A DNA stretch of 64,000 bases from Lachnospiraceae bacterium (GCA_022510615.1 JAFLTC010000002.1:67850-131849), one strand, 5' to 3'; shown: positions 32,145 through 32,945, counted from the first letter of the stretch. Notes: a model not told the origin generated them from the letters alone. Made by a program: numbers and translations.

Positions 32145-32170
32145 ATGTCAAAAAGTGTACCTTTTGACAA
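32145..32170. other. Serine-recombinase crossover site, left (hix-like, core GT)
   Basis: ATGTCAAAAAGT-GT-ACCTTTTGACAA, a 12+2+12 dyad. Confidence 0.8.
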
Positions 32171-32255
32171 TAGCCCATTTTTGTCTAATCAGGTGATATT
32201 CTTTTAGTAATTTGAATATTTTTTATAAAAGATTTCACTAAAATAAGAAAATTTG

Positions 32256-32284
32256 TTGTCTATCACCAATATATATGGTAAAAT
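32256..32284 (+). promoter_or_regulatory. SigA promoter inside the invertible segment
   Basis: TTGTCT-17-TAAAAT with an extended -10 TG. It currently points at the 3' end of the recombinase gene. Confidence 0.65.
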
Positions 32285-32300
32285 ATTCCATGCGTAAGAT

Positions 32301-32326
32301 GTATCAAAAGGTACACCTTTTGACAC
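32301..32326. other. Serine-recombinase crossover site, right (hix-like, core AC)
   Basis: GTATCAAAAGGT-AC-ACCTTTTGACAC, an inverted copy of the left site, 4 bp past the recombinase stop codon. Confidence 0.8.
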
Positions 32327-32330
32327 TTTT

Positions 32331-32945
32331 CTATTTTTCTTCACTTTTCAAAATCTTGGATTTACGAAGTCTTCTGTAAAAGGTTGATTTACTCATATTA
32401 CATTTCTGAAGTGATTCATTTAATGTAAGTTTCTTACACTTCCAGTCATTCACTATTTTAGAAAAATCATCTGGCGTAGCCACCTCTGGTCTGCCAAACC
32501 TCACACCTCTTGCTTTTGCAGCTATAATACCTTGTTGTTGGCGTTTTTTGATATTAGTTCGTTCGGATTCTGCGACAAAGGATAGAATTTGTAACACCAA
32601 ATCCGCTATAAATGTACCCATGAGGTCTTTTCCGTTTCGTGTATCAAGAAGCGGCATATCCATCACACAAATATCAATACTGATTTCCCTTGTGAGAATC
32701 CGCCACTGGTTTTGAATTTCCTCATAATTGCGTCCAAGACGGTCTATACTTAGAATATAAAGTAAATCGCCTTTGCGTAATATTTCCACAAGTTTGGTGT
32801 ACTGTGGTCGTTGAAAGTCTTTGCCTGACTGTTTGTCTATATAGATATTGGATGCCGGTATATTTTTTTCTTGCATTGCCATTATCTGTCGGTTCTCATT
32901 CTGCTCCGTGCTGGATACACGGACATACCCATAAATATTTCCCAT
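32331..32945 (-). CDS. Small serine recombinase (resolvase/invertase family)
   Basis: [30 protein letters not shown] motifs and a C-terminal HTH (SKSTFYR). Confidence 0.95.

Follow-up and report, generated by a model that had tools for sequence, protein, structure and literature searches.

The window that we analysed, a stretch of 64,000 nucleotides from a Lachnospiraceae bacterium, contains a gene for a small serine recombinase of 204 amino acids (P0001; minus strand, 32331-32945), next to whose 3' end lie two 26-bp crossover sites, each built of two 12-bp half-sites around a 2-bp core. The recombinase-proximal site (site 2, 32301-32326) reads GTATCAAAAGGT-AC-ACCTTTTGACAC, with its core AC at 32313-32314 on the plus strand, and the distal site (site 1, 32145-32170) reads ATGTCAAAAAGT-GT-ACCTTTTGACAA, with its core GT at 32157-32158 on the same strand; neither site is assigned a strand, and nor is the 130-bp cassette interior that they enclose (32171-32300). 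The two sites stand 156 bp apart, whether counted from start to start or from centre to centre (i.e., some 15 helical turns between centres), and the GT core is the reverse complement of the AC core. Within the cassette is a sigma-70-type promoter, recognised by its consensus only (TTGTCT-17-TAAAAT with an extended -10 TGn; plus strand, 32256-32284, the -35 at 32256-32261 and the -10 at 32279-32284), and phased A-tracts lie upstream of its -35. The -10 ends 17 nt before site 2, and the promoter faces the 3' end of the recombinase gene, which makes the assembled state OFF. Beyond site 1 lie the remnant of a surface-protein gene and two further genes, all on the minus strand. An earlier note made from this sequence had proposed paired 12-2-12 dyads with reverse-complementary cores 156 bp apart, a recombinase stop codon 4 bp from the nearer dyad, a promoter with an extended -10 TG between the dyads and an OFF state in the assembly, and our analysis recovered each of these elements.

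The recombinase reading frame is intact and its catalytic motifs are present: residues 4-148 match PF00239 (E 3.8e-25), the motifs YVRVSS (containing Ser11) and DRLGR are found, and the C-terminal tail consists of GRP and a helix-turn-helix. Its best solved relative is Sin (104.5 bits, E 5.5e-29), compared with 66 bits for gamma-delta resolvase and 44 bits (E 1.8e-10) for Gin; the alignments to Sin and to gamma-delta span the catalytic motifs, the latter covering residues 4-196. On the Mpi family model NF009949 the protein reaches 43.1 bits, far below the cut-off of 272. Judged by sequence similarity, the enzyme is nearer to Sin than to Hin or Gin, which is a statement about nearest neighbours and not a placement in a tree. 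No match to the Fis-type helix-turn-helix (PF02954) was found in the organism's own genome assembly (88% complete), and the control genomes did match; a gene for an HU homologue is present. Because its nearest relative is Sin, because the genome yielded no Fis-type helix-turn-helix, and because the segment is about 150 bp rather than 1-3 kb and has the recombinase gene outside it, we set this enzyme apart from the Fis- and enhancer-dependent invertases. The description 'Hin-like' in the earlier note therefore holds for the geometry of the sites and the logic of the switch, but not for family membership.

The neighbours on the recombinase side are ordinary metabolic genes, with no transposase among them. 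Between the end of an oxidoreductase operon and the recombinase gene there is a long-hairpin repeat of about 115 nt (33012-33127, with an inverted repeat at 33037-33100), of which the window holds further copies at 15123-15189 and 44436-44484; contigs C13, C43 and C64 of this genome have copies too.

Both crossover sites are well preserved, each forming an 11+2+11 dyad with one mismatch (11/11 arms), and the complementarity between them is 95% over 22 nt. Their half-sites carry the motif T(A/G)TCAAAA, which we take to resemble the hix half-site. When a 24-bp site consensus was scanned with up to three mismatches allowed, sites 1 and 2 were the only two matches in the 64-kb window, 100 dinucleotide-preserving shuffles gave none, and the whole genome (2.1 Mb, 88% complete) again returned sites 1 and 2 only. 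An isolated sequence resembling a half-site, GTGTAAAAAGGT (32961-32972, no strand assigned), lies upstream of the recombinase ribosome-binding site and is one mismatch from a half-site. Its presence agrees with the earlier note, which had drawn attention to it; about 2% of control stretches of 120 nt, however, contain a match of this quality, and a half-site match with no more than two mismatches lies within 120 nt upstream of the recombinase in 25% of 76 relatives, compared with 13% of control stretches. Among these 76 relatives no fixed position or strand was found for such a match. Because it is not conserved among them, we reject an autoregulatory operator as a feature of the family; the sequence at 32961-32972 is probably non-functional, and we do not count it within the switch system.

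The module is one of many. A DNA search of 60 related genomes recovered homologous recombinases with about 60-72% protein identity. At these loci the site pair starts within a few bases of the recombinase stop and the sites are 136-178 bp apart, and a co-directional gene, with its ribosome-binding site and start codon, usually begins immediately past the distal site. At least 589 relatives were found among metagenome contigs, and at least 593 in a prokaryote set with one genome per species. The named hosts are gut and rumen Clostridia (Lachnospiraceae, Oscillospiraceae, Acutalibacteraceae, Ruminococcus and Blautia) and include Faecalicatena faecalis, Guopingia tenuis and Acutalibacter intestini. 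One relative with 69% identity (L176, CAVGWF010000046.1) is in a record titled Escherichia coli 'cleanbin'; as all other named hosts are Clostridia or Negativicutes, this bin is probably mislabelled or contaminated. The order of the parts (i.e., recombinase stop, site, 114-223 bp, site, gene) recurs both in the window's genus and across the Clostridia, and the position of the first site next to the recombinase stop is kept. Some genomes hold more than one module: two loci each were seen in Oscillospiraceae bacterium 42-9 and in the CAKSQS and JAZQON records, and in G021, a member of the window's genus, a second GT/AC site pair with its sites 145 bp apart lies near the start of a contig (C13:482-650; L024/L035), while contigs C15 and C38 have single, weaker sites.

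From 172 loci we obtained 93 site pairs, of which 80 were non-redundant. In all 80 the two cores are reverse complements of each other, and this holds across seven core types: GT/AC at 52 loci, AC/GT at 13, AG/CT at six, TT/AA and AT/AT at three each, CT/AG at two and GC/GC at one. Because pairs were accepted when at least 17 of 24 positions matched, a mismatch in the core could not have excluded a pair from this set.

That members of this family invert is evident from near-identical contigs of different metagenome assemblies, which carry the homologous cassette in both orientations. In one set (L044 and L046 compared with L045), the flanks agree at 98-99.7% of positions, and the 121-bp interior matches at 121 of 121 positions only when read as its reverse complement; in a second (L056 and L057 compared with L060), the interior is identical as reverse complement at 124 of 124 positions. 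In both sets the inner half-sites have been exchanged and the outer half-sites are unchanged, so that the exchange must lie within 12 bp that have the core at their centre, which is what a serine recombinase would be expected to produce. The first of these clusters includes a cultured strain, Faecalicatena faecalis AGMB00832 (L142). In the window's own genus, the promoter points away from the recombinase in G021 (L009) and towards it in the window, G035, G011 and G013. The identical recombinase protein also occurs on two contigs from other samples (L199 and L200), both of which are 100% identical to the window over 31681-33069 and have the cassette OFF. A comparison of orientations across assemblies has therefore found both states among homologous switches but only the OFF state in the three assemblies of the window's species, so that flipping of this particular copy is something we infer rather than observe. 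The central claim of that note, an invertible promoter between the inverted sites of an adjoining serine recombinase, is borne out by the paired sites of the homologues, by their 80 complementary core pairs and by the two orientations.

Two further observations concern the ends of contigs and the absence of a cassette. Assemblers break contigs at invertible sites when reads support two orientations, and two contigs of the family (L006, at G026:C33, and L066) stop exactly at the recombinase-side site. Two related species, G002 (L008, contig C39) and G021 (L009, contig C31), have a flanking lipoprotein gene and the recombinase in common; in G021 there are two sites, whose AT core is palindromic, and the cassette is ON, and in G002 just one AT-core site is present and the cassette is missing. 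Because a symmetric core would allow deletion besides inversion, the arrangement in G002 may have arisen through a natural deletion, or it may represent the state before a cassette arrived.

The cassettes follow strict rules of spacing. Centre-to-centre distances fall into classes (114-115, 125-127, 135-140, 145-149, 155-159, 166-168, 174-179 and 188-190 bp) with a best period of 10.5 bp (Rayleigh R 0.72, a value reached by none of 500 random sets), and the 156 bp of the window belong to the 15-turn class. The periodicity of AA/TT within cassettes also peaks at 10.5 bp (z 13.5 versus shuffles), and A-tracts recur in the family about 6, 16 and 27 nt upstream of the -35; such tracts are present in the window as well. 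Position-wise conservation of the cassettes brought out the promoter and the phased A-tracts only, and no extra dyad or accessory subsite. A clear promoter was seen at 58 loci, and at 45 of them 16-19 nt separate the end of the -10 from one end of the cassette, from which the transcript is expected to start about 10 nt before a site. Scored by simple consensus, 48 of the 80 loci are OFF, 10 are ON and 22 are unclear. A few cassettes (L104 and L073/L074/L075/L077) have a good promoter score on both strands (12 vs 12 and 10.5 vs 11.5, respectively), and these might toggle between two outputs rather than simply between ON and OFF.

If the OFF promoter is active, its transcript would be directed at the recombinase gene. 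The earlier note had it firing antisense into that gene and possibly damping recombinase expression; such damping would stabilise OFF. In support of this, the promoter faces the recombinase 3' end in most loci, and the hairpin in the window is only moderately stable, such that some read-through is possible. Directly between promoter and gene, however, lies a predicted terminator (32304-32345, plus strand), which carries a terminator-like flag and is made up of the site-2 hairpin (32304-32323) and a T-rich tail (9 T in 12 nt). The hairpin of the window's OFF transcript folds at -10.4 kcal/mol (z -2.4), a modest value, and it is without the extended stem seen in many relatives. At OFF-state loci the proximal dyad is often lengthened by up to eight or more base pairs, in which the fixed flank pairs with the cassette's promoter end (mean 3.6 consecutive pairs), whereas the extension is zero at all 10 ON-state loci. 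Across the relatives, the 12-nt tail past the recombinase-side site, in the OFF direction, contains on average 5.9 T, as against 3.1 past the distal site in the ON direction.

The contrast between the two states is sharper when they are compared within each locus. For each of 58 loci, we constructed both states in silico and folded the initial segment of the two predicted transcripts: the mean hairpin energy was -17.1 kcal/mol for OFF and -9.6 kcal/mol for ON (Wilcoxon p ~1e-8), the OFF hairpin was the more stable at 49 loci and the ON hairpin at seven, and the 14-nt tail contained on average 6.9 T in OFF versus 3.6 in ON (Wilcoxon p ~1e-8). An OFF hairpin so much stronger than the ON hairpin, with a tail so much richer in T, looks selected to stop the transcript. 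Antisense firing into the recombinase gene, as the earlier note had it, is not supported, in view of this interposed hairpin and T tract and of the family-wide difference between states, and we consider control of the recombinase by antisense transcription unlikely. Judging from these folds, the crossover site itself most likely serves as the stem of a terminator that insulates the OFF promoter. The T tract also overlaps the lysine-rich end of the recombinase reading frame, which is an alternative reason for its composition.

On the other side of the cassette, the original cargo of the switch is, by three-frame translation and alignment to G035, a dead stub of a BspA-type leucine-rich-repeat surface protein (31930-32102, minus strand). 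It begins with an ATG at 32102 and a signal peptide (MRQNVKCLSVLLTFSLILSSIPGTNASA), is frameshifted at a run of A at about 32004-32021, continues for about 25 codons in another frame, and loses homology at about 31930. The intact counterpart in G035 encodes a BspA-type protein of 417 amino acids (LRR_5, E 4e-52) and is the first gene past the switch of that genome, followed by a Dlt-like operon. The minus-strand pseudogene of the earlier note is accordingly real, being both frameshifted and truncated relative to the G035 gene. A stretch within the stub that matches other genomes (31937-32028) was considered as an RNA element and rejected, since translation and alignment to G035 identify it as surface-protein coding sequence; a search of the whole window against Rfam gave no family above threshold. 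The stub also contains a hairpin followed by a T run (GACTGTC-N7-GACAGTC and TTTTTT, 31967-31996, plus strand) that carries a terminator-like flag; its place inside the stub and its conservation in G035 as part of a coding sequence make a coincidence the probable explanation.

The first intact gene in the ON direction (31384-31908, minus strand) has its own ribosome-binding site and encodes a zinc-ribbon or B-box-like membrane protein of 174 amino acids, with a cysteine-rich N-terminus (CxxC pairs) and a hydrophobic C-terminal half. Its match to zf-B_box (E 0.0054) is below the Pfam cut-off, and its Atlas neighbours are either unnamed or B-box proteins. The gene is 237 nt from site 1, a distance that is typically 15-80 nt in relatives, and the minus strand from 32145 to 31908 yielded no promoter-like site. 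In about 70 non-redundant relatives, the gene that comes first downstream most often encodes a zinc-ribbon protein (Zn_Ribbon_1 in eight, DZR in seven), followed by BspA leucine-rich-repeat proteins, AMP-binding enzymes, collagen-repeat proteins, Ig-like surface proteins and CsrA. Because zinc-ribbon proteins are the commonest cargo of the family, the 174-aa gene is a credible present target of the switch, and it is probably phase-variable. P0002 was considered as a paralogue of the lost cargo and set aside, since it has no similarity to the G035 cargo protein. The two contigs that share the recombinase (L199 and L200) have the same 18 mismatches to the window clustered at 31564-31680, within the 174-aa gene, and both end at 31555; this pattern suggests that the membrane half of the putative target holds a recombination breakpoint or exists in another allelic form.

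The ON transcript may also take in a gene for a secreted protein of 343 amino acids (30100-31131, minus strand), which lies 252 nt beyond the 174-aa gene. This protein matches no Pfam or NCBIfam model, and its Atlas neighbours at a score of 0.90 carry Big_2 and Transglut_core domains. The 'transglutaminase-like' character that the earlier note assigned to it is plausible through these neighbours, but it is a lead only.

The decay of the original cargo raises the question of whether the switch itself still operates. If it were a relic of a working inverton, locked OFF or without useful output, then recombinase and sites would persist merely through recency. A frameshifted and truncated cargo, a next gene that is unusually far from the site, and the OFF state of all three species assemblies would each fit a switch that is no longer under selection. 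Against this, the recombinase has kept its reading frame and catalytic motifs, the promoter is intact, and both sites are one mismatch from perfect dyads with cores that still match; moreover, working relatives, too, are mostly OFF (48 OFF vs 10 ON), and the downstream gene belongs to the commonest class of cargo. On balance, we regard a relic as rather improbable. That the dyads are instead res subsites or operators of a resolvase serving a mobile element or plasmid resolution, as the closeness to the resolvase Sin and the Pfam domain name Resolvase might suggest, is almost certainly wrong, in that the sites are inverted rather than direct, have cores that covary as complements, surround a promoter downstream of the gene, occur only twice in a genome whose recombinase-side metabolic neighbours include no transposase and, at the level of the family, effectively refute such a reading by their inversion with exchange of half-sites.

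We therefore return to a promoter-inversion switch. It is highly likely that the module in the window is a working one, assembled in its OFF state. In the mechanism that we propose, dimers of the recombinase would bind both 12-2-12 sites, which would be paired across a loop that is intrinsically curved and some 15 helical turns long; cleavage at the GT and AC cores, strand rotation and rejoining would then flip the 130-bp cassette together with its single promoter. In the OFF state, the transcript would start about 10 nt before site 2, fold into the hairpin of that site with its U tract, and terminate before it became antisense to the recombinase gene. With the cassette turned ON, transcription from this promoter would pass the distal site, where the predicted hairpin is weaker and a U tract is lacking, and would cross the dead stub into the zinc-ribbon gene (31908-31384) and perhaps further. 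We infer the action of the terminator and the identity of the regulated gene from the sequence. A broader proposal is that the family, including the copy in the window, forms a group of 'mini-loop' serine invertases distinct in mechanism, which would need neither Fis nor an enhancer, would form their synapse across a curved loop of 11-18 whole helical turns, perhaps aided by HU, and would use the recombinase-side site also as the stem of the OFF terminator; the switch in the window would then have outlived its cargo and might now control the zinc-ribbon membrane protein. Taken as a whole, we regard this proposal as possible, and a little short of probable.

Phase-variable surface structures shape the encounters of gut bacteria with phages and with host immunity, and the gut Clostridia switches that have been studied in detail use the RecV recombinase of Clostridioides difficile. 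The family described here is very common, occurring in Lachnospiraceae, Oscillospiraceae, Acutalibacteraceae and others, and each module consists of one recombinase and one promoter. Its design is compact and bound by rules (i.e., spacing in whole helical turns, a cassette that is curved, a promoter placed about 17 nt from one of the sites and a predicted terminator on the OFF side), which makes it a tractable model for inversion of a very short loop by a serine recombinase and, possibly, a compact genetic memory part for Firmicutes. For the annotation of this genome, the gain is that the zinc-ribbon membrane protein gene is probably phase-variable and that the stub beside the switch is dead.

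How does this module compare with known systems? In the Hin/hix system of Salmonella, a small serine recombinase flips a promoter segment between inverted 26-bp sites and thereby turns a surface component ON or OFF; the segment is about 1 kb long, and inversion needs a recombinational enhancer of about 70 bp together with Fis (PMC2427008). Like Hin, Gin, Cin and Pin, the system in the window has inverted 12-2-12 sites with complementary 2-bp cores and an enzyme with a catalytic domain and a C-terminal helix-turn-helix. Unlike that of Hin, its segment measures 156 bp from centre to centre (114-223 bp in the family) and excludes the recombinase gene; and unlike Hin and Gin, the enzyme is nearer in sequence to Sin, and its genome yielded no Fis-type helix-turn-helix.

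Sin (Tn552/pI9789) and the beta recombinase, both from Firmicutes, act at composite res or six sites that include an accessory subsite and a spacer bent by HU or IHF, and they mainly resolve multimers of plasmids or transposons. The beta recombinase of pSM19035 can invert as well as resolve, and it depends on the HU-type protein Hbsu, according to work cited in PMC8493755. The module in the window resembles this pair in that Sin is the closest solved relative of its enzyme, an HU homologue is present, and the helical phasing and curved cassette fit a synapse with a bent loop. Only single dyads and no accessory subsite were found in the module, and it differs from the pair in its substrate and output, which are a chromosomal promoter cassette and the regulation of a gene.

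Among invertases of gut bacteria, Mpi of the commensal Bacteroides fragilis is a serine invertase of short promoter segments before genes for surface structures, and it acts in trans on at least 13 dispersed regions, as cited in PMC5903667. Here, in contrast, there is one recombinase per adjacent switch and two sites in the genome, and the score on the Mpi model is far below its cut-off. RecV, a tyrosine recombinase, has several dispersed switches as its targets, and some of these switches work after transcription initiation. Its switches in C. difficile (cwpV, flgB and cmrRST) are short invertible regulatory segments before genes for surface or motility functions (PMC5903667, PMC7446863). The module in the window shares with these the short invertible regulatory segment and the clostridial gut host, but it has a dedicated serine recombinase and a cassette that carries the promoter.

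General surveys have reported invertons in Clostridia, one of them tying a Clostridia group to tyrosine recombinases (PMC11892184), and for the msa promoter inversion of L. plantarum no adjacent serine recombinase is named (PMC8493755). Gut inverton surveys probably contain members of the present family (PMC11892184, PMC5903667), and a description of this serine-recombinase switch family as such was not found in the main text of the searchable literature. An invertible promoter driven by a serine recombinase is a kind of switch that is already known; to this we add a terminator signal on the OFF side throughout the family, the signal of a curved cassette, a negative result for the upstream operator, and the history of a switch that lost its cargo.
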